Position numbers and translations under genes: made by a program
In this document: one piece after another, positions 33,483 through 48,178 of the stretch
How the letters are laid out: each line of letters begins with the position of its first letter
Numbering within the stretch: the stretch's first letter is position 1
Assembly: GCA_040752075.1 (NCBI GenBank)
Contig: JBFMFQ010000001.1
Span: 342-64,341, forward strand
Source: Candidatus Zixiibacteriota bacterium
GTDB lineage: Bacteria > Zixibacteria > MSB-5A5 > WJJR01
Direction of reading: 5' to 3'
DNA length: 64,000 bases
Notes under the pieces: generated by a model
Told to the model about the DNA's origin: nothing
Seen by the model: only the letters and a program-made list of their open reading frames with translations
Databases searched by the model: none

Positions 33483-34217
33483 ATGCCGACCTATTGGGAA
33501 GACCTGAATTGGGCCGAGTTCCAGAAGCGGGTGCCCGCCGATTTCCGCACCGCCATCATTCCGATCGGGACTGTGGAAGCGCACGGCGTCGGTCCGCTCG
33601 GCACCGACAACTTCATTCCCATCGATGTGGTCAATCAGATCGCCGATGATCTGGCGGCGTTAATCTGCCCGCCCATCCACTACGGCCAGGTCAAAGGCCT
33701 CGCCGGCATCCCGGGGGCCATCGCGGTCGACGAATCGATTTTCGCGACATACTGCGCGTCGGTCTTCGCAAGCATCGCGGAGTGGGGATTCGAACACCTG
33801 ATCGTGATCAATGGCCACGGCGGCAACACCTCTTCACTCAAAAACGCCGCCTGGGAGGTGCACGCCAAGACTGGGATCAAACTGCTCGTGGTGGACTGGT
33901 GGACCCTGGCGGGACCGGTCTGCGAGGCGGTTTACGGACAGGCGGGCGGCCACGCGGGTTGCGACGAAAACGGTTACATGCAGGCCCTCCGCCCCGAGAC
34001 CATTCACCGCGACATGATGAACGACGCCCTGATTTACAACTTCGCCCCCGGTGTTTCGGTCTATCCCTATCCCGGGACGATTCTCACCTACAAGGAAGGC
34101 CAGGGCGCGCCGGACTTCGATGACGCCAAGGCACACCGCTACCGCGAGGGCGCCATCGCCAAAGTCCGGGAATTCTGCCGCCAAACGCTCGATCAGTGGG
34201 ATGCGCTGGGCTACTGA
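33483..34217 (+). CDS. Creatininase-family amidohydrolase
   Basis: IIPIGTVEAHG and VINGHGGN motifs characteristic of creatinine amidohydrolase/MftE/ArfB family. GGGGG RBS before ATG 33483. Confidence 0.75.
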   Translation: MPTYWEDLNWAEFQKRVPADFRTAIIPIGTVEAHGVGPLGTDNFIPIDVVNQIADDLAALICPPIHYGQVKGLAGIPGAIAVDESIFATYCASVFASIAEWGFEHLIVINGHGGNTSSLKNAAWEVHAKTGIKLLVVDWWTLAGPVCEAVYGQAGGHAGCDENGYMQALRPETIHRDMMNDALIYNFAPGVSVYPYPGTILTYKEGQGAPDFDDAKAHRYREGAIAKVREFCRQTLDQWDALGY

Positions 34218-34340: not shown

Positions 34341-35678
34341 TCAGACTCGGTAGGCGAACGTCACAAAGACACGCCGGGTTTTGTAATTCGCGAAGTATGT
34401 CCCCGGGTCCATGTCTCGCAGCTCATACCCGCCATGGACATAGGACATGTCGATCGTCATCACACGGTCGATGAGAAATCCCGCACCGAAGGTGAGGTAC
34501 TGCCGCTGGGACTCGACATACCGGTCATCGATGGGGAGCGGATCGAGAAAGTAGCCGGCGCGGACCGTCACACCTTCGTTGGGGAAAATGTACTCGGCGC
34601 CAAGGTTAACGCCGATTACTTCTCTGAGATTGTCCTTCACAAAGCGAAGTTCAGGCGAATTGTTCAGCAGATCGTCGTCATAATCGAAGTCCAACTGGGA
34701 CCAGTCGGAATACTTGAGGTCGAGCGCGGCTAGGAGATTTCCAGTGGCCCCCGAGGCCCCGATTCCGAAGGCAAAGGGGCGCGTCAGGTTGTAGAAGGAA
34801 ACCGTCTCATACGGCAACGATGGGTCGCCATCATACGGCCAGATGTACGGCGAGAAAAGCGTATCTACCGTATGGTCGTAGATGGAAAACTCTTCAGCGT
34901 CGAGATAAGTGGGTGTTTCAATTGTGACGCCGACCGAAAACGCCTGCGAGACCGTGTAGGTTAGCCCCGCCAATGCTGACACTCCGACATAGTCGATGTC
35001 AGTGTTGATGGATTCGCGTTCACTGATTGAATCGCCGAGATTCCCTTGTGCCACTCTTGCTTGCCAGTCGAAGTGGTCACTTCCAGTCAAGATGTTTAGC
35101 GTCAGCCCGGCGGCCAAGCGTGGGGAAATGTCCATCCCCGCACCGGCAGACCACTTCCACATTCCCCCGTGCTCGATCTCACTGCCGGTGTAGACGGAGT
35201 CGATTCCCGGGTAGGTTCGTTCTGAGTATGCACGGTCGAAACTGTTGAAACGGTGGACGCCTGTTGCGAACACGAGTGATCCTCGATACGTTGGGACTGG
35301 GAGCGTCAGGGACAATGAATTGATTCTCGTCTTACGGATGTCGTCTTCGGCATCTCCGGTCCTGTATCTTGAGCCGAGGCTGGTCTCATTCGACTGCCTG
35401 AAGTGGGAAACGCCGCCACGAAACTCAATGCGCCGAACTCGTGCGAGATTCGCCGGGTTATAGATCAGGGCAGAACCGTCGCGGGCCGACACGATTCCCG
35501 TGTTTCCCATCGAAGTCGAGCGTGCGTCACATCCGAAAAAGTCAGACGCAATGGCCCCTTGAAAGAGCGAGACATCTTCCACGTCCTGCGCAACAACGCT
35601 GGATGGTGAAGTGGCGGAGAACAATGTAATCGCCGCGGTGAAACGGGCTGAAATCAGCTTGAATTGCGAAAGACTCAT
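34341..35678 (-). CDS. Outer-membrane hydrophobic-compound channel, FadL/TodX family
   Basis: Signal peptide. ALIYNPANLARV (NPA hatch motif of FadL family). Amphipathic beta-strands. C-terminal FAYRV. GGAG RBS 5 nt before ATG at 35678. Confidence 0.6.
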   Translation of the reverse strand: MSLSQFKLISARFTAAITLFSATSPSSVVAQDVEDVSLFQGAIASDFFGCDARSTSMGNTGIVSARDGSALIYNPANLARVRRIEFRGGVSHFRQSNETSLGSRYRTGDAEDDIRKTRINSLSLTLPVPTYRGSLVFATGVHRFNSFDRAYSERTYPGIDSVYTGSEIEHGGMWKWSAGAGMDISPRLAAGLTLNILTGSDHFDWQARVAQGNLGDSISERESINTDIDYVGVSALAGLTYTVSQAFSVGVTIETPTYLDAEEFSIYDHTVDTLFSPYIWPYDGDPSLPYETVSFYNLTRPFAFGIGASGATGNLLAALDLKYSDWSQLDFDYDDDLLNNSPELRFVKDNLREVIGVNLGAEYIFPNEGVTVRAGYFLDPLPIDDRYVESQRQYLTFGAGFLIDRVMTIDMSYVHGGYELRDMDPGTYFANYKTRRVFVTFAYRV

Positions 35679-35685
35679 GAGGCTC

Positions 35686-36288
35686 CTATGGTTTGATCGT
35701 GCCACGTCTTGGGGCCTTCTTCCCTGGTTCAGGTTTTGGTGAGTTGGCGCCGGCAGTTGAGTCTGCGGGGTTGTTCGATGGGGTAACACGGACTTTGTCA
35801 CCTTGCGGAATCCCCGCGCCGGTTCCCGGTGTGCCGCCGCCTTTGGTGGCACCGGCGCCCGGCGCGATATACGTTCCACCTGTTGAGGGCACCGCCGGTG
35901 CCCCGCCGACGTAGGGGGGAGCCAACGAACCGCGCCGTCCGGCGCGCTCCCCTGGCTCGATGGGATTGCCGTTTTCGTCCACCCGACGGACGTCGTCGTC
36001 ATACCAGTAGTGGTCCCACCACCACGGGTACGCGTAGTAGTAACCCAGGCGCGGGTACTCGAAGTAGTAATCGGGGTACTCCCCGTAGAAGAAGCCGTAA
36101 GGGTAGGAACCGTAATCGGTGTGGCATTCCAGGCACCGGTCACGGTAATACTCCTGGTGATGCGCCGAATTCGAAGCGCCCTCCTCCGACGTGATCGGGT
36201 GCTTCAGGATGGTGTAGCATCCGACCAGCAGGAAGGCGAGCAGCATCGCCAGCGGTGCGGCCCAGCGCAGATGTACGGGTCGTGCCAT
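35686..36288 (-). CDS. Lipoprotein with extreme Tyr/Trp-rich acidic segment, CxxCH motif and Gly/Pro-rich tail
   Basis: Lipobox LLVGC. HHQEYYRDRCLECH followed by YPYGFFYGEYPDYYFEYPRLGYYYAYPWWWDHYWYDDD. Disordered G/P/T-rich C-terminus. Stop is 8 nt upstream of the FadL-like start. Confidence 0.55.
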   Translation of the reverse strand: MARPVHLRWAAPLAMLLAFLLVGCYTILKHPITSEEGASNSAHHQEYYRDRCLECHTDYGSYPYGFFYGEYPDYYFEYPRLGYYYAYPWWWDHYWYDDDVRRVDENGNPIEPGERAGRRGSLAPPYVGGAPAVPSTGGTYIAPGAGATKGGGTPGTGAGIPQGDKVRVTPSNNPADSTAGANSPKPEPGKKAPRRGTIKP

Positions 36289-36558: not shown

Positions 36559-37374
36559 CTACAGCCTTTCGACATAGATAAGCCGCAGTTCGCGTCCGAA
36601 GGAGTCGGTGTCGCGACGGTTTTCCAAGAGGTCCTTCATGACCCCCTCGACATAGACCTGATTGAGAATCAGCCACCGAACCCCGAAGTTCAGGTACCCG
36701 CGTCCCTTCCCAAGCGAATGCGGCGTGCGATCATCGTTGAGCGCCATGTCGTATTCAGCGACCATCCCCAGGCTGTTGTCGAAGCGGACATCGCCGCCGA
36801 AGAAGAAGTTAACGTCCTTGTCATGCTTGTCTTCGCGCGAGTAGTTGATACCACCATGAATCGAGGAGGTGAACCCGGAGGTGCGGTACCCCTTCGACGC
36901 CACCGCGTAAAAGCCCTTGGACTTGATCTGGTAACGGTTCAGGGAATCGATCCAAAGGCCGAAACCCTGCTCTTCGTAGCCGACCGATATCCCCGGCCAG
37001 ACCATGTTCTCACCGAGAATCTGGAGTTTGGTGAGAAACTGCATCCGCGGGTTCCAGGTCGGATCGTTGGAGGAGATGACATCGGTCCCGCCATAGCTGA
37101 ACCCGATTTGCCAGCGGTTGGTCAGGCCGAATTGCAGGATGCCAAGGACGCCGCCGTCCGGAAACGCCCGCAGTTCGGTGTCGAAGGACCCCTTGCTCAG
37201 GGTCCCCGCCGTGGGCGCGTCGATCATTCGCCGCGGCGGCGGATTCAACTCGTCGGATGCCGGCACCTCCGGTCGCGGCGACCGGCGCCACTGCGCCGAG
37301 GCATCGGCGGAAACCAGCAGAACGACCAACATGGCGGGCACAAGCCCGCCCCAGCGTGTGATGGAAGATTGCAT
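36559..37374 (-). CDS. Hypothetical outer-membrane beta-barrel protein
   Basis: Signal peptide (LVPAMLVVLLVSADASAQ). Alternating hydrophobic beta-strand pattern rich in G/Y/F/N. GAGGGG RBS 6 nt before ATG 37374. No family recognised. Confidence 0.45.
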   Translation of the reverse strand: MQSSITRWGGLVPAMLVVLLVSADASAQWRRSPRPEVPASDELNPPPRRMIDAPTAGTLSKGSFDTELRAFPDGGVLGILQFGLTNRWQIGFSYGGTDVISSNDPTWNPRMQFLTKLQILGENMVWPGISVGYEEQGFGLWIDSLNRYQIKSKGFYAVASKGYRTSGFTSSIHGGINYSREDKHDKDVNFFFGGDVRFDNSLGMVAEYDMALNDDRTPHSLGKGRGYLNFGVRWLILNQVYVEGVMKDLLENRRDTDSFGRELRLIYVERL

Positions 37375-37464
37375 TTTTAACCCCTCTCGGATAAACCCTG
37401 CCGCCGGAAAGGTCCCCGGAGGGGAGTTTCTTGTCAATAGAAAAGCGGGACCGCCAAAGGGGGA

Positions 37465-38349
37465 TTAAGGCAGCATCGAACGGAGGTCTCGTTCAACCGC
37501 GCGGCGGTAGTCGGCCTTTAATGTCTCGAAAACCCGCAACGCCCGGGCGGTCAGGCGCAGTCTTTTGCTCCCCAGCCGGCGAGCCAGCCGCAGTCCGCGC
37601 ACAGACGACGTCAAGAATACCCCATCCGCCGTTTCAAGCGACCGGAGTGTCAGGCCGCCGGTCCGTACAGGAATGCCCCGCTCGTGGGCGGCGTCCAGGA
37701 TTACTTGTCGCACCACGCCGGCCAGTGCGCCATCCCTGAGGGAGGGGGTACGCAGCGTGCCGTTTTCAATGGCGAACACCGTCGCCTGCGCGCCATCCGC
37801 AATACGGCCGCGCGAATTGACCACGATCGCATCGTCGCATCCCTCCGCGGCGGCCATCTCCGATGCGAACACATTCGGGAAGTACGCCAGGGTCTTGCAG
37901 CCGATCATCGGATTGATGGGATCAATGCGCCATGGCGCAACCCAGACATTTCCTGCCTGCACCAAGGGGTTGGTTTGCGGCCTGACAATGATGACTCTTC
38001 TCGGCTTGAAGTCTGGTGCGAATCCGCGAGTGGTGATCAGGTTTGCCGCGCCCTCGCCGGCTCCGCTGCGGACAATCAACCGCTTGAGATGCCGGCGCCA
38101 CCAGTTTGTGTCGCCCATGTCGATCTGGAGGCGCTCTCCGCCCGCCCGCATCCGGTCCAGGTGCTGCTGCAGGAACAGGGCGTGACCACGGTGAATCCGG
38201 ATTGTCTCAAACAACCCCCAGCCAAATCGGAATCCCCAGTCTTCAATTGAAATGGCGGGGCGATCAGGGGACAGGATTCGCCCGTCGATTGACGCGAAAT
38301 CGCGCGACTTAACGGGCTTCGACCGTGGGTTTTTCGTGGATGATGTCAT
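37465..38349 (-). CDS. pabC: Aminodeoxychorismate lyase (class IV aminotransferase fold)
   Basis: Fold-type IV PLP enzyme pattern (WGFRFGWGLFETIRIH ... GCKTLAYFPNVFA). Immediately downstream of and overlapping pabB. Start ATG 38349 overlaps pabB by about 41 nt. Confidence 0.6.
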   Translation of the reverse strand: MTSSTKNPRSKPVKSRDFASIDGRILSPDRPAISIEDWGFRFGWGLFETIRIHRGHALFLQQHLDRMRAGGERLQIDMGDTNWWRRHLKRLIVRSGAGEGAANLITTRGFAPDFKPRRVIIVRPQTNPLVQAGNVWVAPWRIDPINPMIGCKTLAYFPNVFASEMAAAEGCDDAIVVNSRGRIADGAQATVFAIENGTLRTPSLRDGALAGVVRQVILDAAHERGIPVRTGGLTLRSLETADGVFLTSSVRGLRLARRLGSKRLRLTARALRVFETLKADYRRAVERDLRSMLP

Positions 38350-39667
38350 GCGTCGTTGTCTCGATCCCGCTCGGCAACAATGAATCCAACATCGGCGCGA
38401 TTTTGACCAGCGATTCCTCGTACTCGGCGTCACAATCCGAGTCGGCCACGATTCCGCCGCCGCCGTGGACACGGAGCGTGGGTCCGATTTTCACCGCTGT
38501 GCGAATCGCCACGGAAAAGTCGGCGTCCCCGGCCGCATTCACCCAGCCGATGGCGCCGCAATAGACCCCGCGCGGGGTGGACTCCACCTCGTTGAGAATC
38601 TCGACGGAACGGCGCTTTGGCGCCCCGGTGATGGACCCGCAGGGGTGCATGGCCCGCATCACATCATGCCACTGCAATCCCGGAGCGAGCCGGGCGCGAA
38701 CGATTGATTCGAGGTGCCAGACCGATGCATAGGCGCGCGGCCGTCTGAGGGCCGCGACACGAACACTGCCGATCTCGGCGATCGTCCCCAGATCGTTTCG
38801 CTCAAGATCCGTGATCATCAGCAATTCGGCCCGGTCCTTCCCACTTTCGAGCAGGGCTCTGAGATTCGCCCTGTCGGACAATGGGTCATTTCCACGCGCC
38901 CGGGTGCCCTTGATGGGACGGGACTCCACGACGTTCCCGGATTTTCGCCAGAATCGTTCCGGCGAACATGAGATCACTTCGATTCCGGGGTAAGCCGCAT
39001 CGATTGATCCATCGCGCATGCGACCGGGAGGGAATCGGAGATAGGCCGAAAACGGCGCCGGATTGGTCCTCGCGAGACGTTCGTAGAGCTCCCGGCCCGG
39101 GGTGGTCGTTTCGGATTCGAATGCCTGCGTGAGATTGGCCTGGTAGATGTCCCCTTCGGCGATGTGCTCTTTGATTTTCCGCACGGCATCGCGGTAATCC
39201 GATTTTGCCACCAGCGGTTTCCATCCATACAGCGATGGGTGCCTGCAGGGAGCCTTAATCCCAGTGTGTCGCGCCGAACTCGCGGGGGAGACGGTTTCAA
39301 GCTGGCCGAAGAGCAGGAATTGGATCGGGGGATATTCCGCTCGTCTTGGTGAGCGCAGCCCAAGCATCGCATGCCCGAATTCATACGACACGTACCCGAT
39401 CATTCCCCCTTGGGGAAACTCACCGGCCACGTTCTCCCGAAGCCGTTCGAGCGCGTCAAGGGTGTCACCGTTTCCTGATGCCCCAGTGCCATCTTGCCAT
39501 CTGACGGCCCAGTGGGCATCATCCGCCGCGAATCGCCCCAGCAAACCCCGCCCGATAACATGGCCTACCCCCAGTCCGGGCCGGCGCCAGCGGCTCTCCA
39601 GGATGGCCATGCCACCAATTCCGTCTTGGAGGGGCGATGGAGGAGCGAAGGTGGATTCGAACATCAT
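38309..39667 (-). CDS. pabB: Aminodeoxychorismate synthase component I (TrpE/PabB family)
   Basis: Chorismate-binding motifs GDIYQANLTQAF, PFSAYLRF, GSITGAPKRRS, GGGIVADSDCDAEYEE. Paired with pabC-like. Start ATG 39667 or GTG 39784. Confidence 0.65.
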   Translation of the reverse strand: MMFESTFAPPSPLQDGIGGMAILESRWRRPGLGVGHVIGRGLLGRFAADDAHWAVRWQDGTGASGNGDTLDALERLRENVAGEFPQGGMIGYVSYEFGHAMLGLRSPRRAEYPPIQFLLFGQLETVSPASSARHTGIKAPCRHPSLYGWKPLVAKSDYRDAVRKIKEHIAEGDIYQANLTQAFESETTTPGRELYERLARTNPAPFSAYLRFPPGRMRDGSIDAAYPGIEVISCSPERFWRKSGNVVESRPIKGTRARGNDPLSDRANLRALLESGKDRAELLMITDLERNDLGTIAEIGSVRVAALRRPRAYASVWHLESIVRARLAPGLQWHDVMRAMHPCGSITGAPKRRSVEILNEVESTPRGVYCGAIGWVNAAGDADFSVAIRTAVKIGPTLRVHGGGGIVADSDCDAEYEESLVKIAPMLDSLLPSGIETTTHDIIHEKPTVEAR

Positions 39668-39874
39668 GGCGGGTGAGAAACATCGGAATTTCCCCCCGAT
39701 CAAGGTGTATTGAGGACAGGAGGGCCGACAGCCGCGATTCCGGTCCGAAGTTGTCAGGGATCGGCTCCGGCGCCGATCCGACACTGAAATCTATCTAAAT
39801 GTATTGCAACGACTTATGAAATTGGCGCAATTTGACTCTAAACCCGCATCCGGGTTACCCGTATCAAATAGCAC

Positions 39875-39900
39875 GGAACGTCACGCCCACTCGATTGTAT
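39875..39900 (+). promoter_or_regulatory. Candidate ECF-type promoter (GGAAC -35 element) in AT-rich divergent region upstream of ECF sigma gene
   Basis: GGAAC at 39875-39879, followed 16 nt later by TGTATT. Region 39785-39947 is conspicuously AT-rich relative to the window. Confidence 0.25.
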
Positions 39901-39947
39901 TAAGGCGTGAGAGCTATTCGTTGCGACCGAACAAGGGAGCTACAATA

Positions 39948-40544
39948 ATGGACTCACAAAAAGCCATCGACCATGCCCTGATGCGTCAGGTGCAGCAGGA
40001 TGACTTTGAGGCCTTTGAAAAGCTCGTTGACCGATACAAGGGCCGGCTGGTCAATGTCATCACGCGTATGCTCAATGACCAGAGCGAAGCAGAGGATCTT
40101 GTCCAAGAGACGTTCCTGCGGGTTTGGACGCACCGTCAGGATTACGACTTCTCCTACTGCCTGTCGACGTGGATTTACACCATTGCGCTGAATCTGGCCA
40201 AAAACGAGCTGCGCAAGCACCGGAAGTTCAAATTCTTCAACCTGATCGAGATGGCGGAAAAGGGGATTGAAATCCCCGACCCCAAGATGGGCCCATCGGC
40301 CTTGGGGCACATGCTTGATCAGGCCATCACAACCCTTCCGGTGAAGTACAAGACGGCATTCTTGTTGCGCGATGTCGAGCAGATGTCCTACGAGGAAGTC
40401 GCGCAGATTCTTGGTGTCCCGCTGGGGACCGTGAAGTCCCGTGTGAATCGGGCCAGGGCGGTCCTGAAAGACCAACTCAAACCGAAACTGGAGCAATCAC
40501 GTGCGCTGTCGCAAGGCTCGCTGGTTCCTGTCCGCACGATGTGA
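39948..40544 (+). CDS. ECF RNA polymerase sigma factor (sigma-70 family, sigma-E-like)
   Basis: Region 2 (DLVQETFLRVWTHRQDYD) and region 4 HTH (SYEEVAQILGVPLGTVKSRVNRAR). GGAG RBS before ATG 39948. Confidence 0.85.
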   Translation: MDSQKAIDHALMRQVQQDDFEAFEKLVDRYKGRLVNVITRMLNDQSEAEDLVQETFLRVWTHRQDYDFSYCLSTWIYTIALNLAKNELRKHRKFKFFNLIEMAEKGIEIPDPKMGPSALGHMLDQAITTLPVKYKTAFLLRDVEQMSYEEVAQILGVPLGTVKSRVNRARAVLKDQLKPKLEQSRALSQGSLVPVRTM

Positions 40545-41106
40545 CGGGACTCTTTCCGAGCGCGAGCGTCTGCGCTTGGAAGACCATCTGAAGGGCTGCG
40601 CCGATTGCCGGCGGGAGGCGTTTTACTTCTCGGAGATTGCCGCCTGCGCGGGGCGTCTTGAGAAGGCTCCGGTCCGCCCGGACTTCAATGTTCGTCTCCG
40701 CGCCGCCATACGCCGGTCCGAGGTCGCCGCATCGACTCCCAAGCCGTGGTACCGTCCAACCCTTCAGCCTCTGTTCCGCCCGGTACTGGCTTTTGGCCTT
40801 CTGGTTCTGACCTTGGGCGGGGGAGTCACGGGTTACGTCCTGACGCATAACAGCGAATCCGGCCCAATGGACTCCACGGAGGCCATCGTGGAATGGCAAC
40901 CAGTGATCCAACCGGGAATGACCCCGGTGGGGGATATGACCGCCGAAGACCAGCGTGTCCGGCAGTACATCGACACGAACGGCGCCCTGAGTGATTTTGT
41001 GATCGAGACCTACAGCGTGGAGGATCCGAACACGGAAAAGCATCTGCCGCAATACCTTAATCCGGTTGTCCCAGCGGAGCAGATGGCCCGTCAAGTGAGC
41101 TATTGA
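40501..41106 (+). CDS. Anti-sigma factor with ZAS zinc-binding motif, single TM
   Basis: HLKGCADC (HxxxCxxC). One TM (VLAFGLLVLTLGGGV). Overlaps the sigma gene end. GTG start. Confidence 0.65.
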   Translation: MRCRKARWFLSARCDGTLSERERLRLEDHLKGCADCRREAFYFSEIAACAGRLEKAPVRPDFNVRLRAAIRRSEVAASTPKPWYRPTLQPLFRPVLAFGLLVLTLGGGVTGYVLTHNSESGPMDSTEAIVEWQPVIQPGMTPVGDMTAEDQRVRQYIDTNGALSDFVIETYSVEDPNTEKHLPQYLNPVVPAEQMARQVSY

Positions 41107-41130
41107 TTCCCACCCCGAATTTGTCCTTTC

Positions 41131-41158
41131 AAGGCCGCTCCCAGCGGCCTTTTCTTTT
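41131..41158 (+). terminator. Rho-independent terminator after anti-sigma gene (AAGGCCGCT-ccc-AGCGGCCTT + TTTCTTTT), followed by a second GC hairpin at 41161-41177
   Basis: 9-bp stem, 3-nt loop, T-tract, 25 nt after the stop at 41106. Confidence 0.6.
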
Positions 41159-41293
41159 GCTCCCGGCCCTTGGCCGGGCCTGTCAAAGGGTATGTGTTTC
41201 TGTCGATTCTGGTGGTACGGACGCGTCCAATCGGGGTAGAACCATTGGTGCAAAGGAGACCGGATTGGCGAGGATTCCGGAGGGTTGGATTGA

Positions 41294-42688
41294 TTGGTGG
41301 GTGAAAGGTTGTTAGACAACAGGAAAACCGCGGGGAGCCCGCTGCGGCCGTGGAGGATCACGGCGGCGGCGGTCATTGCCGGTGCGATCTGGCTGGCCGG
41401 TCACGGCACCATGGCGCGTGCCGACTCCACCGACACATCACCCTTCAGCATCCTGCGCGCACTCGAATCGGAAATGCGATCGATTGTGGAGTCCGTCGCA
41501 CCATCCGTGGTGACCATTCGAGCCACTCACTCCGCCTCCGGTGAGTTTCCGGTCGGTATCGACCGGTCCATGTCGGTCGGCTCGGGAGTCTTCCTGGACT
41601 CGACCGGTCTCATTATGACCTCAAGCGGCGTGGTCAGCGGCGCCGATGATTTCTGGATCGAGACCTACGATGGCCGGCTGTACCAGGGGATCCTTCTTGG
41701 CGCAAGCGATGAGATCGCCCTTTTGCAGATCAAGGGTTGCCGCATTGTGCCGGCGCACTTCGGCGATGCTCTGGACCTTGGTGTTGGATCGATGGTCGCC
41801 GCGGTGGGAAACTCCTACGGTTATGCCTGTGGCGTTTCATGGGGGGAGGTCAACGGCTTCCGGCCTGACGGCACAATCCAAATGACACTCGGCATCTCCG
41901 CGGGCAGCTCCGGCGGAGCGGTGGTCAACACCGCCGGCCGGATCGTCGGGTTGGTCAGGGCTAAGATATCCGAACCATTCTATCTCGATCCGGTGTACTG
42001 CCAGACGGGGAAAGACAAGACACCCATCAGCCTCCCCGGGCGCCGCCTCGAACTGCCGACCTCGGCGGTGTCTCTGGCGATTCCCATTCAATCGGCATTG
42101 CGCAGCGCCCACCGGATACTCGAGGCGGGGACCGAGCCACGCGCCTACCTCGGCGTCTATGTCGACGACCTTCGCGGGTGGTATGCCGCGCATTTCAAAA
42201 CCTCAGAAGGGGTTTTGGTTACGGGCGTGGTTGGTCAGACCCCCGCCGAGGCCGCTGGACTTCGCCAGGGTGATCTGATCACCGCGATCGATCACCAGCC
42301 GGTGGGGTCGATGTTGCGTTTTCGGCAAGTCGTGGCGCAAACATCTCCGGGACAGCGGCTCCAATTCGATGTCGTGCGAAGCGGCCAGAGTCTGAAGATC
42401 GTTGTTGAGGCGGGGCGTGCGGACGCGCCGCACCTGGCCGCGACCGATCGCAAGTCGCGTCCCTTCCCCGTGAGCCCCGCGGCGAGTGTGTATTCCGAAT
42501 CCAAGGCGACCCCGGTCTCCGCGGAGGAGGTCGTCCCGGCGAGGCGTCAGACCGTGGCGGCGAAGACCGGTCAACACCAGCCCGGCGGTGCGTCGGAAGA
42601 CTGGGTTGCCAGACTCAACGCCATGCAGTGCATCATCGATTCACTGCGCCAGGAACTGCTCATTCTGCAGACCCAAGCCCCCCGCTGA
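41294..42688 (+). CDS. HtrA/DegP-like PDZ serine protease homologue (canonical His position appears substituted)
   Basis: N-terminal TM. GSGVFLD...TSSGVV, where HtrA has TNNHVV. SDEIALLQI (Asp region). GSSGGAV (GNSGGPL Ser motif). PDZ (GVLVTGVVGQTPAEAAGLRQGDLITAID). TTG start. Confidence 0.7.
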   Translation: MVGERLLDNRKTAGSPLRPWRITAAAVIAGAIWLAGHGTMARADSTDTSPFSILRALESEMRSIVESVAPSVVTIRATHSASGEFPVGIDRSMSVGSGVFLDSTGLIMTSSGVVSGADDFWIETYDGRLYQGILLGASDEIALLQIKGCRIVPAHFGDALDLGVGSMVAAVGNSYGYACGVSWGEVNGFRPDGTIQMTLGISAGSSGGAVVNTAGRIVGLVRAKISEPFYLDPVYCQTGKDKTPISLPGRRLELPTSAVSLAIPIQSALRSAHRILEAGTEPRAYLGVYVDDLRGWYAAHFKTSEGVLVTGVVGQTPAEAAGLRQGDLITAIDHQPVGSMLRFRQVVAQTSPGQRLQFDVVRSGQSLKIVVEAGRADAPHLAATDRKSRPFPVSPAASVYSESKATPVSAEEVVPARRQTVAAKTGQHQPGGASEDWVARLNAMQCIIDSLRQELLILQTQAPR

Positions 42689-42797
42689 TCCCCGCGCCGC
42701 AACACCTCATCTGGACTTGCTCCGCCCCGGCGGTGCGGGTATTCTGAGCTGCATGCCCCGTGTGGTATAACAGGGTTGGAAGGCAGAGCATTAGACG

Positions 42798-45700
42798 GTG
42801 CGTAAGAGGTTTAAAATTCCACTCCTGACGCTGGTCCTGCTCGTTGTCGGCGCCGGCGTTATCCTGCTTCTGCTCATCAAGACCGATTGGCTGCCGCGTC
42901 GGGCCTCCGGCCTGATCAACGAGGCATTGGAGCACACCGCCGATCTGCACATTGAGATCGGCGACTTCGGCGGCAATCTCCTCTCCGGCATGGCCGCTGA
43001 GAATGTGGTCGTCACGCGCGCCGATGCCCCCGCCGACACGGTGGTTGTCATCGCACGGGTGTCGGCGGAGTATGACATACGCGATCTCTGGAATCGCCGC
43101 TGGGTCATCCGGTCGGCGGTCGTCGATTCACCAAAGGTGTACCTTCCGCAAGATTCGCTCCGCCAGTTCTTCGCCTCATTCGCGAGGAAGGACACGGCCG
43201 CATCCCGGCAGACCAGGCCGCTGGTGCTTTTCGACTTCGACCTCCACGACTTCGTCATCCAGGGTGGTCAGGCGTACCGGCGCAGCACATCATCGATCAT
43301 GGTCGATTCGTTCAACTTGCAACTTTCGGCGGCGAGCCATGGCAGTGTGATCGCTGCCCGACTGCGGGGCGCGGAGGCCGTCATCGATGGTTACGGACGG
43401 GTCTCGGCCAGCGGGCTTCTGCACTCCGAAAGCGGCGCCTGGAAAGTCGACTCAGTCGAAGTGTCGACATCCCGATCGCGCATCCACGCGTCCGGATCCA
43501 TGCGGGAATGGGTGCTTCGGACAGACCCGCTGGATTTGGCCGACGCCGCCTTCATCACAGGCGGGATCAAGGGAAGTGTCGAATTCGACGGTACGATCAA
43601 ACCGGACACATCGCTGACCCAATGGTCGATTCAGGGCCGCACCTCGGGTGTCCTCGAAGGTTACACGCTCGAGAGCGTCGCAATTCAAGTTGAGGTGCGC
43701 GGCCGGCAGATCGCCATCGACTCCGTTGCCGGCCGTGTGTCCGGCGCCCTTTGGAATGGTTCGGGTGCGTTCAATCTGGGAGTGAAACCGGAACGGTACA
43801 GCTACGGGGGTTCAGTCCGCGGCTTCGATCTCAACCGGTGGGCGGACGGTACTTTCTCCACGGACCTCAACGGCGCGATTGCGGTCGAGGGCGAAGGTCT
43901 CACCGATGAAACTCTGTCGTTGGATCTTGATGTTCAGTTGGCGCCAAGCCGCTTTGATAACGTTCGAATCGACTCGGCATTTGGACGTCTCACCGTGACC
44001 ACACGCGATGCGATATTCGACGACGACTTCCAGATGTATACCAACGCAACAGAGCTGACCGGCGGCGGGAGCATCTCGTATGCGGACTCCATCGACATGT
44101 TCGCCAACGTGTACTTTGAAGACCTCCGACGCTGGGACTCCCTCGTCTTTGTTGACTCGCTGGCGGGCCGGGCGTACGCGTACATTTACCTGTCCGGCTT
44201 GACCGAGGATCCGGATCTCGCCGGACGTCTTCTGTCCGATTCGCTTCGGTTGTTCGACATGCGCAGTTCATCGGTCGAGGGATGGTTTTATGCTCCGAAC
44301 TTTCTCTCGCGCCCTTCCGGGGATGTGAACTTCCGATTTGGCGCCAGCGATGCGTGGGGATGGGCGGTGGATTCGGTCGTCTTGCGCGCGAGCCTCCTGG
44401 ATCGCCGTGTGGGGATAGACTCGATGGCGGTGTTCACACCCGCCCTGACCGCCCAGGGACGCGGCTGGTTGGACTGGTCCCATGGCACCATTCCTGTCCG
44501 ACTTCTGCCGCTCACGGCCGTGTGGGAAGACCAAATCTTCCGGGCCACCGACACGATCGCTGTTAGCGTCGATTCCCTCGGGTTCGAGTTTTCTGAGGTG
44601 GCGGTGGAAAGCGGACTGGGGGAAGTTGCGGCCAGTGGGCGTGTCAACTACGATGAGTCCACTGATCTCGATTTCTCCATTGAGGGAGTCCGCATATCCA
44701 GCATCGCCCGTCGGCTGTTCCCCAATCTCAGGGCCGATGGCCTGATTGCGGCCTCGGGCCACCTTGAAGGGACGCTGGACAATCCGATCCTCACCCTTGA
44801 CGGGACAATTCGCGAACTTGAGTACGATGGCATTCCCGCCGGCGATCTTTCCGGCGCGGTCGCCTATCGCGACAATCGCCTGCGAACAGATGAGTTGCAG
44901 CTCATGCACCCGAACTACCGTGCGGTGCTCGCGGGCGAATTCCCTGTTTCACTCGACTTAAGCGGCGGAGGGGCACATGTTCTCGAAGAGCCGATGTCGG
45001 GGCGTCTCAGTGTCTCCGGAGAGGCGCTTGAGCTGGCGGCGCAACTGCTGCCCGAGACCGTGGAGTCCGTGAGCGGCCCATTCTCGATTTATGCCACGCT
45101 CGGCGGCACGCCCCGCTCCCCTCTGGTCACCGGAGACGCGCATCTCCGGAACGGTACGATCAAGGCGATCGAGATCGCCAATCCCATCGAGAATTTGCAG
45201 GTCGATGTCCTGCTCAGCCAGGATACAATCAAAATCGAGCGGGCGGAGGGCATCATCAAGCAGGGCCGGCAGACCGGAAAAGTCTCCGTGACCGGCGACA
45301 TGAAGATTCTCTCGTACAACCTCTTCGACTACGACCTGAAAGTCACCGGCCGCGATGTGCCCGCCCGCTTCGAGTTCGAGGATTTCTACGTCGAAACCGA
45401 CTTCGACCTGAATGTCAACGGCAGTGATCCACCGCTGGTGAGCGGGACCATTCAGCCCACCCGCGTCGAAGACCGCATGCCATTCGAGGATGAGGACACC
45501 CCGGAGGTGATCGATCCCGACGGGTGGGACTGGGACTTCACCGTGGAAATGCCGGGAAACTACTGGATTCACAACGAGCAGATTGATGCGGAGTTGTCTG
45601 CAGACCTGAGGATTTTGCGCGAGGAGGGACGGCCGACTTACCTGGGGCAGGCGGAGATCATTCGCGGCAAGGTATACCTCTTCGACAAGATCGGTCGCAT

Positions 45701-46274
45701 CCAGTCGGGCATTCTGACTTTCGACAACGTGAACGGGCCCGACCCGAGCCTGGATATCGATGTCCTCTTCGTTATCCGCCAGCCCAGGCCCGACCAGGCG
45801 CGTCAGAGCGAGGGGTCGCAGTCGCTCGACGTAAACCTGCATGTCGGCGGGCGCGCCTCCGAGCCCCTCATCCAGCCCGAACCGCCCTACACGGAGCAGG
45901 ATGTGCTCCTGCTCTTGACCGCGAACACCAATTTCGGCGGCGGGGAGCCGACCTCGGCATCCGATCCCTGGGCCGACCGGCTGAAGTTTGCGGCCACGGG
46001 CTTGCTGTTCTCCGAAGTGCAGCGGGTGGCCGCCCGCAAACTCGGGCTGGAGACTCTCGAGATCAGTTCGGAGGGTGATCCGACCGATGCGGAAATCACC
46101 GTGGGCCGGTACTTCTCGCCGCATCTCTACCTGTATGGTTCCAGCCAGGTCGACGCGGGCGGGGGGCAGGAAGTGGGGTTTGAGTACCGCTTCAACCGTC
46201 ATTTGTTTCTGGAAGGCAACCGTGACAGTGAGAATCTTTACCGGCTCAACCTGCATTTCAACTGGGACTATTGA
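42798..46274 (+). CDS. tamB: Translocation and assembly module protein TamB (AsmA-like, DUF490 C-terminus)
   Basis: N-terminal TM anchor. Over 1100-aa beta-rich repeat protein. C-terminal DUF490-like end (...YRFNRHLFLEGNRDSENLYRLNLHFNWDY). Confidence 0.7.
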   Translation: MRKRFKIPLLTLVLLVVGAGVILLLLIKTDWLPRRASGLINEALEHTADLHIEIGDFGGNLLSGMAAENVVVTRADAPADTVVVIARVSAEYDIRDLWNRRWVIRSAVVDSPKVYLPQDSLRQFFASFARKDTAASRQTRPLVLFDFDLHDFVIQGGQAYRRSTSSIMVDSFNLQLSAASHGSVIAARLRGAEAVIDGYGRVSASGLLHSESGAWKVDSVEVSTSRSRIHASGSMREWVLRTDPLDLADAAFITGGIKGSVEFDGTIKPDTSLTQWSIQGRTSGVLEGYTLESVAIQVEVRGRQIAIDSVAGRVSGALWNGSGAFNLGVKPERYSYGGSVRGFDLNRWADGTFSTDLNGAIAVEGEGLTDETLSLDLDVQLAPSRFDNVRIDSAFGRLTVTTRDAIFDDDFQMYTNATELTGGGSISYADSIDMFANVYFEDLRRWDSLVFVDSLAGRAYAYIYLSGLTEDPDLAGRLLSDSLRLFDMRSSSVEGWFYAPNFLSRPSGDVNFRFGASDAWGWAVDSVVLRASLLDRRVGIDSMAVFTPALTAQGRGWLDWSHGTIPVRLLPLTAVWEDQIFRATDTIAVSVDSLGFEFSEVAVESGLGEVAASGRVNYDESTDLDFSIEGVRISSIARRLFPNLRADGLIAASGHLEGTLDNPILTLDGTIRELEYDGIPAGDLSGAVAYRDNRLRTDELQLMHPNYRAVLAGEFPVSLDLSGGGAHVLEEPMSGRLSVSGEALELAAQLLPETVESVSGPFSIYATLGGTPRSPLVTGDAHLRNGTIKAIEIANPIENLQVDVLLSQDTIKIERAEGIIKQGRQTGKVSVTGDMKILSYNLFDYDLKVTGRDVPARFEFEDFYVETDFDLNVNGSDPPLVSGTIQPTRVEDRMPFEDEDTPEVIDPDGWDWDFTVEMPGNYWIHNEQIDAELSADLRILREEGRPTYLGQAEIIRGKVYLFDKIGRIQSGILTFDNVNGPDPSLDIDVLFVIRQPRPDQARQSEGSQSLDVNLHVGGRASEPLIQPEPPYTEQDVLLLLTANTNFGGGEPTSASDPWADRLKFAATGLLFSEVQRVAARKLGLETLEISSEGDPTDAEITVGRYFSPHLYLYGSSQVDAGGGQEVGFEYRFNRHLFLEGNRDSENLYRLNLHFNWDY

Positions 46275-46279
46275 GAGTG

Positions 46280-48178
46280 ATGCGACTGCCGGCCGCACTC
46301 CTGCTAGTGGCGATCATCCTATCGCTCCCCGCCGCATCGCGGGCGCAGGATAGCACACTGACGGGCGAGGAATTGTCCCGCTGGGTGCGTCGACGGCCCA
46401 ACATCAGTCGCATTGAGGTGACCGGCAACACCGCTCACAAGTCCGGACGAATCAGAAACGTGATGCAGCTGAAGACGCCCAGCTTCTGGGCGCACTTCGG
46501 ACTTCGGGAACGTCCCCGGCTGCTGCCGCTCACCATGGAGCGCGATGCCGCGACGATCGACCGGGAGTATCGCGCGATCGGCTACTGGGATGCCGTTACC
46601 AAAGTGACCGCCAGGCCGGATAAGGATGGCGAATCGGCGGTGGTCTCGGTCGCGATCACCGAAGGTGCGCGATCTCACTGGGGCGCGATAACGATGACGG
46701 GCGACCACGGGGAACTGCTCTCGCGCACTTCGCGCTTTGCCGGGCCGTTGGGAAGGGGGAAGCCCGCCGATTCGATGGCATTCGCACTCGCCCACGCGAG
46801 AATGCTCGCCGAGTGCGCCAATCAAGCACATCCCGCCGCCCGGGTACTGCCGACAATTAGCCGTCGGCAAGATTCCATCGACGTTCATTTCGAACTGAAA
46901 AGCGGCCCGCGGGTGGTCCTGGGAGAAGTCCACATGGAGGGACTCGAACACACCCGGGAAAGTGTGGTCCGGCATGAACTGCGTCTTCAGCCAGGACAGC
47001 CCTACTCCCGCCGCCAGCTGGATGAACGCCAGCAGGACATTTACGCCACCGGTTTGTTCACCTTTGTCCGTCTGGAGCCGCGCTACGCGGACTCCGCCGC
47101 CGGCCAAAGCGAGCGTGTCGCCGATCTGAACTTGCGGCTTGTTGAACGGGCGCCGTCGTTCATCGGATTCCGCACCGGCGCCGGGCAGGATGACTATCGC
47201 GATCTGACGTTTGATTATGCGCTGGAGTGGGGAAGCCGTAACTGGATGGGAACAGCGCGCAAGTACACGCTGACGGCGACCTCGAGTTTTGTCGTGGTCA
47301 CCGAATGGCGTGTTTTGCATCACCGCTTCTCCGGCAGCTACACGGAGCCTTATATCTTCGGTCTCCGCCTTCCCACCACGCTCGAACTGGCGTACGAGCC
47401 GCCGCTGCGATCCGCCACCCAGGATTACCGTGTCGAGCGGATGTCGGGACAGTTGAGTGTAACCCGCCGGTTCCGGCGGGTCCACCGGCTCTGGTCTTCG
47501 CTGGTCTACGAGCGGGTGAATATCAGCGACGTGCCCGAGGATCGCCGGGAGGACATCCTCGAAGAAGAGGGCAACACGATCAACCGTCGGTGGAACTTCG
47601 CGCTGGAGCGCGACACACGGCCCAACCTGTTTGTTCCGACCGCCGGCGCCCTGACCCGGTTCTCCACCGAGTTTGTCGGGGGATTCCTGGGTGGACGGAG
47701 CGACTTCTACAAGCTCGACTTCTCCTGGGCGAAGTATCAGATCATCAGCGATCCCACGGTGCTGGCCAGCCGCATCCGTGTCGGCTGGGCGGGCGTCCAT
47801 TCGGGAGGCGATTTCGTCCCTTCGCTCGACCGGTTCTACCTCGGCGGTGCGAACTCGATCCGCGGGTACTCGGAGAACACCGTCGGCCCGGTGGATTCCC
47901 TCGGTGTGGCCGTGGGCGGCGAGGTCATCGCCCTGTTCAACCTGGAGTTGCGCACCCCGGTGAGCCGAAAATTCTGGTTTACGATCTTCGGCGACTTGGG
48001 CAACAACTGGGCCAGTTTTCATGACATCGAACTCGAGGAAACATTGCTGTCGATCGGAATCGGCTGGCAGTACATCGCGCCGGTCGGCCCGCTCCGCCTG
48101 GACTATGCACGGCGGGTGCTCCACAAGCGGCATCCCCCCTCCGATCGACTGCATCTTTCCATTCTCTTTTCATTCTAG
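46280..48178 (+). CDS. tamA: Omp85-family outer-membrane assembly protein (TamA-like, about 3 POTRA)
   Basis: Signal peptide. POTRA-like repeats. C-terminal surface-antigen barrel ending LSILFSF (terminal Phe). Start ATG 46280, GTG 46277 or TTG 46271, overlapping the tamB stop. Confidence 0.7.
   Translation: MRLPAALLLVAIILSLPAASRAQDSTLTGEELSRWVRRRPNISRIEVTGNTAHKSGRIRNVMQLKTPSFWAHFGLRERPRLLPLTMERDAATIDREYRAIGYWDAVTKVTARPDKDGESAVVSVAITEGARSHWGAITMTGDHGELLSRTSRFAGPLGRGKPADSMAFALAHARMLAECANQAHPAARVLPTISRRQDSIDVHFELKSGPRVVLGEVHMEGLEHTRESVVRHELRLQPGQPYSRRQLDERQQDIYATGLFTFVRLEPRYADSAAGQSERVADLNLRLVERAPSFIGFRTGAGQDDYRDLTFDYALEWGSRNWMGTARKYTLTATSSFVVVTEWRVLHHRFSGSYTEPYIFGLRLPTTLELAYEPPLRSATQDYRVERMSGQLSVTRRFRRVHRLWSSLVYERVNISDVPEDRREDILEEEGNTINRRWNFALERDTRPNLFVPTAGALTRFSTEFVGGFLGGRSDFYKLDFSWAKYQIISDPTVLASRIRVGWAGVHSGGDFVPSLDRFYLGGANSIRGYSENTVGPVDSLGVAVGGEVIALFNLELRTPVSRKFWFTIFGDLGNNWASFHDIELEETLLSIGIGWQYIAPVGPLRLDYARRVLHKRHPPSDRLHLSILFSF

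Follow-up and report, generated by a model that had tools for sequence, protein, structure and literature searches.

A 64,000-nucleotide (nt) stretch of a Candidatus Zixiibacteriota genome (contig JBFMFQ010000001.1; hereafter the window, G+C ~62%) contains, at positions 39948-42688, three genes on the forward strand that encode a sigma factor of the extracytoplasmic function (ECF) type, a zinc-binding anti-sigma (ZAS) factor and a homologue of the HtrA proteases that lacks the catalytic histidine. The sigma gene (39948..40544, 198 aa) overlaps the gene for the single-pass anti-sigma factor (40501..41106, 201 aa) by 44 nt, and the HtrA-like gene (41294..42688; 464 aa, Trypsin_2 plus one PDZ domain) follows after a spacer of 187 nt. 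NCBI holds an identical HtrA-like protein from a Candidatus Zixiibacteriota metagenome-assembled genome (MAG), labelled 'S1C family serine protease'. An earlier interpretation made from the letters alone (the sequence-only reading) had described the three genes as a classical envelope-stress cassette. All three open reading frames (ORFs) lie where that reading placed them, but "classical" does not fit, since Escherichia coli degS is unlinked to rpoE and encodes an active protease, while linkage here is strict. The locus is better described as a set of three genes conserved together, one of which encodes a dead HtrA.

The sigma factor consists of regions 2 and 4 only (Pfam Sigma70_r2, 1.3e-19; Sigma70_r4_2, 8.7e-19) and scores 116.7 bits against the TIGR02937 sigma70-ECF model (cut-off 42.9), which places it among the ECF (group 4) sigma factors, with SigW and RpoE as its best named relatives. 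It matches its orthologues at 324-383 bits in a core set of 13 loci, drawn from GTDB species representatives and consisting of Zixibacteria-type MAGs, of which a few carry the label Ignavibacteria or Acidobacteriota. The main text of the ECF reclassification paper makes no mention of HtrA, trypsin, PDZ or TamB. An ECF-type promoter (GGAAC-N17-GTATTA, 39875..39902, + strand) precedes the gene and is conserved in relatives: all 11 related loci holding this region carry GGAAC-N17/18-GTATA(T) 45-75 nt 5' of the sigma start, an arrangement that we take to resemble the SigW-type consensus. A TTG at 39804 was considered as an alternative start and ruled out because the conserved promoter falls inside the extension it would create, which supports ATG 39948 as the true start.

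The anti-sigma factor matches zf-HC2 (7.8e-10; 39.1 bits against a cut-off of 22.2) and carries an H29-x3-C33-x2-C36 motif that is invariant among its homologues. With this motif, a gene placed directly after the sigma gene and a single transmembrane (TM) segment, it has the features of a class I ZAS anti-sigma factor that putatively binds zinc. In the AlphaFold2 (AF2) model the cytoplasmic helices and ZAS domain are confidently placed and a TM helix spans residues 92-116, after which the 85-residue periplasmic part (117-201) appears as low-confidence coil, a segment that is predicted from the model to be disordered.

The HtrA-like protein belongs to the HtrA/S1C homologous family by its Trypsin_2 fold (PF13365, 63.8 bits against a Pfam cut-off of 27.6) and its single C-terminal PDZ domain (PDZ_2, 1.6e-13), which retains the carboxylate-binding loop motif defined for HtrA PDZ domains (PMC11642142). 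Its AF2 model has a mean predicted local distance difference test (pLDDT) score of 78, rising above 90 over most of the protease and PDZ domains. It comprises an N-terminal hydrophobic helix (residues 19-36), the protease fold (72-264), the PDZ domain (285-372; 42146..42409, +) with an intact loop Y285-L-G287-V, a disordered linker (379-429) and a C-terminal amphipathic helix (433-461; 42590..42676, +; RL..L...IDSL..EL..L) that is conserved throughout the core clade described below and possibly forms a coiled coil. Foldseek searches with this model returned DegP, DegQ, AlgW, DegS, MucD and HhoA at E values of 1e-24 to 1e-20, with DegS and AlgW among the closest structural matches. None of the NCBIfam equivalog models was matched above its cut-off (DegP/Do TIGR02037, 148 vs 416 bits; DegS TIGR02038, 111 vs 423; DegQ, 93 vs 756; MamO, 15 vs 800). 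Compared with a canonical HtrA profile, the LA and L3 loops are shorter and the L2 loop carries an insertion of about 25 residues. This clade-specific L2 region (41966..42067, +) contains the motifs ISEPFYLDP and PGRRLELPTS, is preceded by an invariant Lys224 and is modelled with beta-strands.

The active site was located by three independent alignments: phmmer comparison with solved DegP, DegQ and DegS chains; a MAFFT alignment of 120 database homologues with E. coli DegS, whose H96/D126/S201 motifs came out as expected; and a profile built from 49 canonical HtrAs, which aligned with high posterior probability. All three pair TNNHV with TSSGV and GNSGG with GSSGG. The claim that Gly occupies the catalytic His position is thus upheld by each alignment (codon Gly112, 41627..41629, +). 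The catalytic Asp position, on which the sequence-only reading had not remarked, is taken by Glu140 (41711..41713, +) within 'SDEIALLQI', next to Asp139. The nucleophile position, as that reading had proposed, still holds Ser206 (41909..41911, +) within GSSGG, with the oxyanion-hole glycines retained (G204, G207 and G208, invariant in the clade), and the PDZ domain is likewise kept, its loop being invariant. Of the His-Asp-Ser triad that defines an HtrA/S1C serine endopeptidase, only Ser206 is left.

Two other histidines had been named as possible substitutes, and neither rescues the triad: H79 (in ATHSASG) is not among the six commonest residues in its column, H155 (in VPAHFGD) is present in 2 of 38 sequences, and both are essentially specific to the window. 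Column conservation in the 38-sequence core alignment revealed no conserved His anywhere in the protease domain, the sole column with a His majority being H300, which lies inside the PDZ domain.

Loss of the catalytic His is a property of a whole lineage. The first homologue search recovered a sharply distinct clade (P0001-P0064) at 215-1014 bits, with the next generic HtrAs at ~110 bits. Among the 60 clade members in which the site is covered, none has His at the catalytic His position. The core-clade alignment of 38 sequences has R in this column in 23 sequences, L in 8, S in 5 and G in 2; the Asp column is D in 27, E in 9, Q in 1 and N in 1; and the nucleophile column is S in 25 and T in 13. 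Canonical matches from the same search have H/D/S nearly without exception. Because it is common to every clade member, His loss goes far beyond chance. Orthologues, which the sequence-only reading had proposed to compare, share the loss of His; Gly itself is rare and Arg is the commonest replacement.

At 31-64% identity, the clade retains 45 invariant columns, which cover the oxyanion-hole glycines, the PDZ carboxylate-binding loop and new clade motifs. Within the PDZ domain, Y285, G287, Y289 and D292 are invariant and modelled at pLDDT >90; A223, K224, E253 and P255 are invariant in the core clade. Clade-specific motifs comprise GNSYG, WGEVNGFRPDGTIQ, AKISEPFYLDP, PGRRLELPTS and the C-terminal IDSL..EL..L helix, and the conserved new motifs also include NGFRPDGTIQ, AKISE and ELPTS. 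Lineage-wide loss of catalytic residues combined with purifying selection elsewhere is the pattern of a pseudoenzyme. Since no conserved His is found elsewhere in the protease domain while the PDZ domain and many new motifs are invariant, these comparisons strongly support a pseudoprotease kept under selection rather than a protein in decay.

An exhaustive profile search of 1.84 billion representatives extended this pattern to a wider family. In distant single-PDZ relatives the His column shows S, N, G, A, L, D or T, the Asp column is mostly Asn, and the nucleophile is usually Ser and sometimes A, V, M or G, so that, as judged from these alignments, all three triad positions drift across the family. 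The pseudoprotease interpretation put forward in the sequence-only reading is thereby strengthened, with His lost clade-wide, Thr replacing Ser in 13/38 core sequences, Asn often replacing Asp in distant members and no substitute His. The same search returned other degenerate HtrA homologues with multiple PDZ domains (P0131, P0134 and P0146), among them P0131 (663 aa, three PDZ domains, triad positions P/N/V) and P0146 (1293 aa, nine PDZ matches, R/D/Y); these appear to be separate pseudo-HtrA lineages. Among the longer matches we found no Rosetta-stone fusions of anti-sigma factor and HtrA, those matches being multi-PDZ proteins.

The genomic neighbourhood ties this lineage to its sigma/anti-sigma pair. 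Among the core loci, the order sigma, anti-sigma, His-less HtrA is kept in all 11 that reach upstream, and the order His-less HtrA, TamB, TamA in 13/13 downstream. Linkage in the core loci is, by itself, weak evidence for a functional tie because the whole 15-kb region is syntenic there, including pabB-like, aminotransferase IV and peptidase C26 genes. Stronger evidence comes from distant His-less members, six of which (P0064, P0124, P0130, P0133, P0156 and P0126) are 31-38% identical to the window protein, and three of which (P0071, P0092 and P0067), at 26-30% identity, rank no higher by score than canonical HtrAs. All nine lie directly 3' of genes for an ECF sigma factor and a ZAS-type anti-sigma factor, with gaps of 8-94 nt, and their flanks are unrelated (a TonB receptor, M16 peptidases, a spermine-synthase-like gene, PAP2 with type II secretion/pilus genes, TPR with shikimate genes, and PLD with a sulfatase-maturase gene). 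The sigma factors of six distant trios are 47-50% identical to that of the window, an identity that, at the sequence level, implies co-inheritance; the other three match it with phmmer E values of 1e-31 to 1e-53.

Canonical H/D/S HtrAs taken from the same match list as controls had a sigma or anti-sigma neighbour in none of three cases. The contrast of 9/9 with 0/3 corresponds to a hand-calculated Fisher exact p of ~0.005, a value to be read with the caveat that the nine are not fully independent (loci L020 and L027 share some neighbours). The trio is what has been conserved, and belonging to it coincides with absence of the catalytic His. Searches with the canonical-HtrA profile found no active or canonical HtrA in the 64-kb window, and none is encoded in any sampled trio locus. 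Five core loci under other names, L002, L008, L009 and L010 ('uncultured Ignavibacteria') and L012 ('Acidobacteriota'), have full Zixibacteria-type synteny and proteins 38-56% identical to those of the window; the taxonomy given for these records is probably mistaken or out of date.

A second conserved feature of the unit is the end of the anti-sigma factor, a 17-residue C-terminal tail (YLNPVVPAEQMARQVSY-COOH; 41053..41103, +). Every one of 76 anti-sigma homologues ends in an aromatic residue (Y in 66, F in 10), 50 of them in VSY, while among 203 control proteins two end in Phe and none in Tyr. The motif [YF][VILM]xP lies exactly 17 residues from the C-terminus in 68/76 homologues, and the other eight have variant residues at the same place, with no insertions or deletions in their last 28 residues, as does the window's YLNP, which misses the strict pattern. 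In the distant trios, a [YF][VI][LMQ]P-type motif is found near the C-terminus in 7/9, with L024 and L026 having only YVLD and YVLK. The tail has the sequence pattern of a PDZ ligand (a free Phi-x-Phi-COOH end), and the PDZ domains of DegS and DegP bind C-terminal aromatic or hydrophobic peptides (PMC8103513; PMC11642142). Its aromatic end and fixed-distance hydrophobic strand give it the look of an HtrA substrate to a reader composed of PDZ domain and cleft, which we regard as a strong sequence-level lead. At PDZ column 300 (nt 42191-42193), 6/7 aligned members of a subclade with Phe-ending tails (P0056-P0063) have Tyr or Phe instead of His; covariation of this column with F-ending tails was dropped as evidence, as it reflects one phylogenetic split only.

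Transcriptional signals separate the HtrA-like gene from the other two in the core clade. An intrinsic terminator (41131..41159, +) has a 9-bp GC-rich stem, a 3-nt loop and TTTTCTTTTG, its hairpin proper (41131-41151) being followed by a T-tract, and each of the 12 related loci that include this junction has an equivalent hairpin with T-run 25-30 nt past the stop of the anti-sigma gene; with a GC-rich hairpin, a T-tract and a conserved position, Rho-independent termination is predicted here. A second hairpin (CCCGGCCCTTGGCCGGG; 41162..41178, +), a perfect 7-bp GC stem without a T-run, lies directly past the terminator T-tract and forms part of the minimum free energy (MFE) structure; it is not evidently conserved in related loci. 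The terminator and second hairpin reported in the sequence-only reading prove real features of the sequence, folding jointly at an MFE of -34.1 kcal/mol (z = -3.7), which none of 200 shuffles equalled.

Between the terminator and the HtrA-like start codon lies a conserved -10-like box (GGGGTAGAAC; 41233..41242, +), and a GGGGTACAAT-like box is present there in 10/12 related loci as well as in the window; none was seen in L001 and L002, which have longer spacers. In L010, L011 and L013, GGAAC stands 17 nt 5' of the box, matching the sigma gene's own -35, and dependence of the HtrA-like promoter on the sigma factor is only suggested by this match. We attempted to derive a single -35 consensus for this promoter and did not obtain one (GGAAC, GGCGC or GCGTC by subclade). 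The expectation that the HtrA-like gene is separately transcribed is therefore supported for the core clade, with its terminator in 12/12 loci and a -10-like box downstream, and not for the distant trios, whose gaps of 8-94 nt look like those of co-transcribed genes. These signals make it most likely that the pseudo-HtrA gene is transcribed on its own in the core clade; in the distant trios the short gaps point to an operon of all three genes, probably the ancestral arrangement.

These observations bear on how the anti-sigma factor is controlled. We propose that the anti-sigma tail is held by the dead HtrA like a substrate it cannot cleave and that this protein, in the role of a guard and sensor, gates release of the sigma factor, an account that we consider about equally balanced between right and wrong. 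The proposed ligand would be the tail consensus [YF]-V-x-P-x-V...Phi-x-[YF]-COOH, held with its C-terminal aromatic residue in the PDZ pocket and its hydrophobic YVxPxV strand in the inactive cleft, with no cut being made. Such a complex could shield the anti-sigma factor from the genuine site-1 protease, in the way that RseB protects RseA. The DegS signal, namely the exposed aromatic C-terminal peptides of outer-membrane proteins (OMPs) that have not been assembled, or other unfolded clients would compete for the PDZ domain and cleft; competition would free the tail, so that the anti-sigma factor would be degraded and the sigma factor released. In the Zixibacteria core clade, an upstream terminator and an own promoter, possibly sigma-dependent, would have been gained, and sigma dependence would allow the amount of guard to be set apart from that of sigma and anti-sigma factor. 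Parts of this scheme have precedents: PDZ domains of the DegS type recognise peptides from OMP C-termini, RseB acts as a guard of RseA (PMC8103513), and HtrA variants without activity continue to bind clients and serve as chaperones (PMC11642142).

By analogy, the trio works most like DegS/RseA/RseB. In the E. coli sigma-E/RseA/DegS(+RseB) system, too, an ECF sigma factor is held by a single-pass anti-sigma factor, the periplasmic partner RseB guards the RseA ectodomain (PMC8103513), and DegS is a membrane-proximal single-PDZ member of the HtrA family that reads C-terminal aromatic peptides, a reading that we infer for the protein here. The differences are equally clear. The H96/D126/S201 triad of DegS is intact and the enzyme cuts RseA, but the HtrA-like clade lacks the His; RseA is not a ZAS protein, whereas the anti-sigma factor here is; and the aromatic C-terminus belongs here to the anti-sigma factor itself, unlike in DegS/RseA. 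The gene order of ECF sigma, ZAS anti-sigma and HtrA homologue also recalls the sigE / rseA-htrA-tatB locus of Mycobacterium tuberculosis. Mycobacterial RseA is cytoplasmic. In that locus sigE and rseA are separated by a promoter, why the genes are linked is described as unexplained, and HtrA is described as an essential serine protease that degrades a cell-wall amidase (PMC10027907), unlike the present protein. There tatB follows htrA, whereas no TatB gene follows the trio here.

Degenerate HtrA-family proteins offer a different comparison. MamO, a magnetosome HtrA/trypsin_2 pseudoprotease with a degenerate site and a Thr nucleophile, diverged from active relatives (PMC4794232) and, like the HtrA-like protein, is a family member with a degenerate active site kept for non-catalytic roles. 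It differs in having kept its His and Asp and lost an oxyanion-hole glycine, in binding metal through a di-His motif and in activating MamE; the HtrA-like protein has kept its glycines, lost its His and has a PDZ domain, and it is tied to a sigma/anti-sigma pair rather than to biomineralisation. DegP S210A, in its chaperone mode, is likewise built on an HtrA scaffold and holds unfolded clients that it does not cut (PMC11642142). It is an engineered mutant of a cage-former with two PDZ domains, whereas the HtrA-like protein represents a natural lineage with one PDZ domain and a C-terminal helix, in which the L2 loop is remodelled and LA and L3 are shortened. In our literature search MamO was the sole HtrA-family pseudoprotease found, and no link between a pseudoprotease and an anti-sigma factor was found.

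Several points weigh against the guard proposed above. Three of the nine distant anti-sigma tails are non-aromatic (...TFSP, ...ESH and ...RGGL; the other six end in Y or F), and outside the three loci with GGAAC the -35 of the HtrA-like promoter varies by subclade, being GGCGC or GCGTC. A different PDZ protease, for instance a true DegS, Prc/Ctp or RseP, could be the reader of the tail, and the present data fit positive and negative regulation alike, so that the dead HtrA could be a guard or an activator. The idea from the sequence-only reading that a His-less HtrA would change how the anti-sigma factor is controlled draws here on the linkage statistics and the conserved PDZ-ligand-like tail, and both would suit an adaptor as well. 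Such an adaptor would resemble MamO, which activates MamE-dependent proteolysis with its Thr nucleophile (PMC4794232): the dead HtrA would present the tail to an active HtrA, possibly in a hetero-oligomer, or to another site-1 protease, and so promote cleavage. HtrAs are obligate oligomers (PMC11642142), but hetero-oligomers are purely hypothetical here and no active HtrA is encoded in the 64-kb window or the sampled trio loci, and we regard this as quite unlikely. A function confined to chaperoning, which we consider rather doubtful, would make the protein a periplasmic holdase for unfolded OMPs that belongs to the sigma regulon and acts with TamB/TamA in Zixibacteria, with no control over the anti-sigma factor. 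It would agree with the chaperone function kept by proteolytically inactive DegP/HtrA variants (PMC11642142), with the retained oxyanion hole and PDZ domain, with an own promoter-like box past the terminator that has an ECF-like -35 in three loci, and with TamB/TamA immediately 3' in 13/13 core loci and adjacent in L022. Yet TamB/TamA adjacency is lost in 8/9 distant trios and sigma/anti-sigma adjacency in none, the 15-kb core synteny leaves TamB adjacency there of little weight, tamB has its own promoter box with a terminator between the genes in three loci, and a generic chaperone does not account for the strict linkage and the fixed-spacing, substrate-like tail.

Retained catalysis by a non-canonical mechanism, whether through a Ser/Thr206-Lys224 dyad or a substrate-supplied base, would allow a DegS-like site-1 cut of the tail. 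The Ser or Thr nucleophile in all 38 aligned core members, the invariant oxyanion-hole glycines and Lys224, which is invariant in the core clade, are compatible with such chemistry, and Thr-Lys and Ser-Lys catalysis exist in other folds. We know of no Ser-Lys dyad in the chymotrypsin fold, however; the nucleophile is replaced by A, V, M or G in distant trio members, the AKISE motif is kept by only about half of the nearer wider-family representatives (P0121-P0134), the His position is mostly Arg, a poor general base, and the periplasmic part of the anti-sigma factor has no conserved His that could complete a triad in trans. Together these make retained proteolysis highly improbable. Next to impossible is a decaying pseudogene or a one-codon sequencing or assembly error: Gly at the His position is rare in the clade (2/38) and Arg to Gly is a single-base change, but the ORF is intact, an identical protein is in NCBI, and His is missing in all clade members from independent assemblies amid strong conservation elsewhere, which effectively refutes this explanation.

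Regulated proteolysis by DegS is the textbook model of bacterial outer-membrane stress sensing, and in the present case catalysis has been lost across an entire lineage of DegS/HtrA homologues that remains tied to a sigma/anti-sigma pair, while the anti-sigma factor has evolved a tail resembling an HtrA ligand; together these suggest an envelope-stress sensing route of a previously undescribed kind. If the dead protease binds the tail, a protease-substrate pair would have been turned into a receptor-ligand pair. Tentatively, the trio may represent a new class of ECF control, in which the anti-sigma factor has a built-in HtrA-substrate mimic, formed by a hydrophobic strand and a C-terminal aromatic residue spaced by a fixed 17 residues, that is permanently held by a dead HtrA and stress is read by competitive displacement. 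It is equally tentative that OMP C-termini evict the tail, as opposed to allosterically activating an HtrA site-1 protease; this would amount to an evolutionary inversion of DegS/RseA, spread over several uncultured lineages. Such a mechanism, if true, would give ECF signalling a new input and assign a function to genes now labelled 'S1C family serine protease', and the trio would offer a compact sensor of three parts, open to testing, from phyla without cultured members. For annotation, the sequence comparisons indicate that these HtrA-like proteins should not be counted among active peptidases, because their catalytic triad is lost lineage-wide.

Downstream of the trio, a TamB-like gene (42798..46274, +; 1158 aa, Pfam TamB 5e-35) is followed by a TamA/Omp85-POTRA gene (46271..48178, +; 635 aa, Omp85 6.4e-49), which overlaps it by 4 nt. 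A conserved sigma70-like box (CTTGC..N..GGTATTCT; 42716..42745, +) precedes tamB, and a terminator follows the HtrA-like gene in three loci. TamB and TamA adjoin the HtrA-like gene in 13/13 core loci and are absent downstream in 9/9 distant trios, although in L022 they lie divergently upstream of the sigma gene. We rejected TamB/TamA as part of the functional unit on the grounds of this lineage-specific adjacency, the separate tamB promoter box and the 15-kb core synteny.

Upstream, an aminotransferase class IV gene (37465-38472, -) and a chorismate-binding PabB/TrpE-like gene (38309-39784, -) diverge from the sigma gene and look like a pabB-pabC pair; because the two ORFs as listed overlap by 164 nt, the downstream gene of this pair probably starts at an internal codon. 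Beyond them, a 292-aa ORF (36559-37437, -) with a signal-peptide-like N-terminus and no Pfam match is conserved at 358-419 bits and syntenic in most related loci, and its product may be an outer-membrane protein of unassigned family. A 600-aa ORF (34341-36143, -) has a weak FadL/Toluene_X match below the cut-off and adjoins a creatininase-family gene (33483-34217, +). The distant locus L022 likewise has a creatininase gene close to its trio, and this shared neighbour hints that L022 may come from a relative of Zixibacteria.

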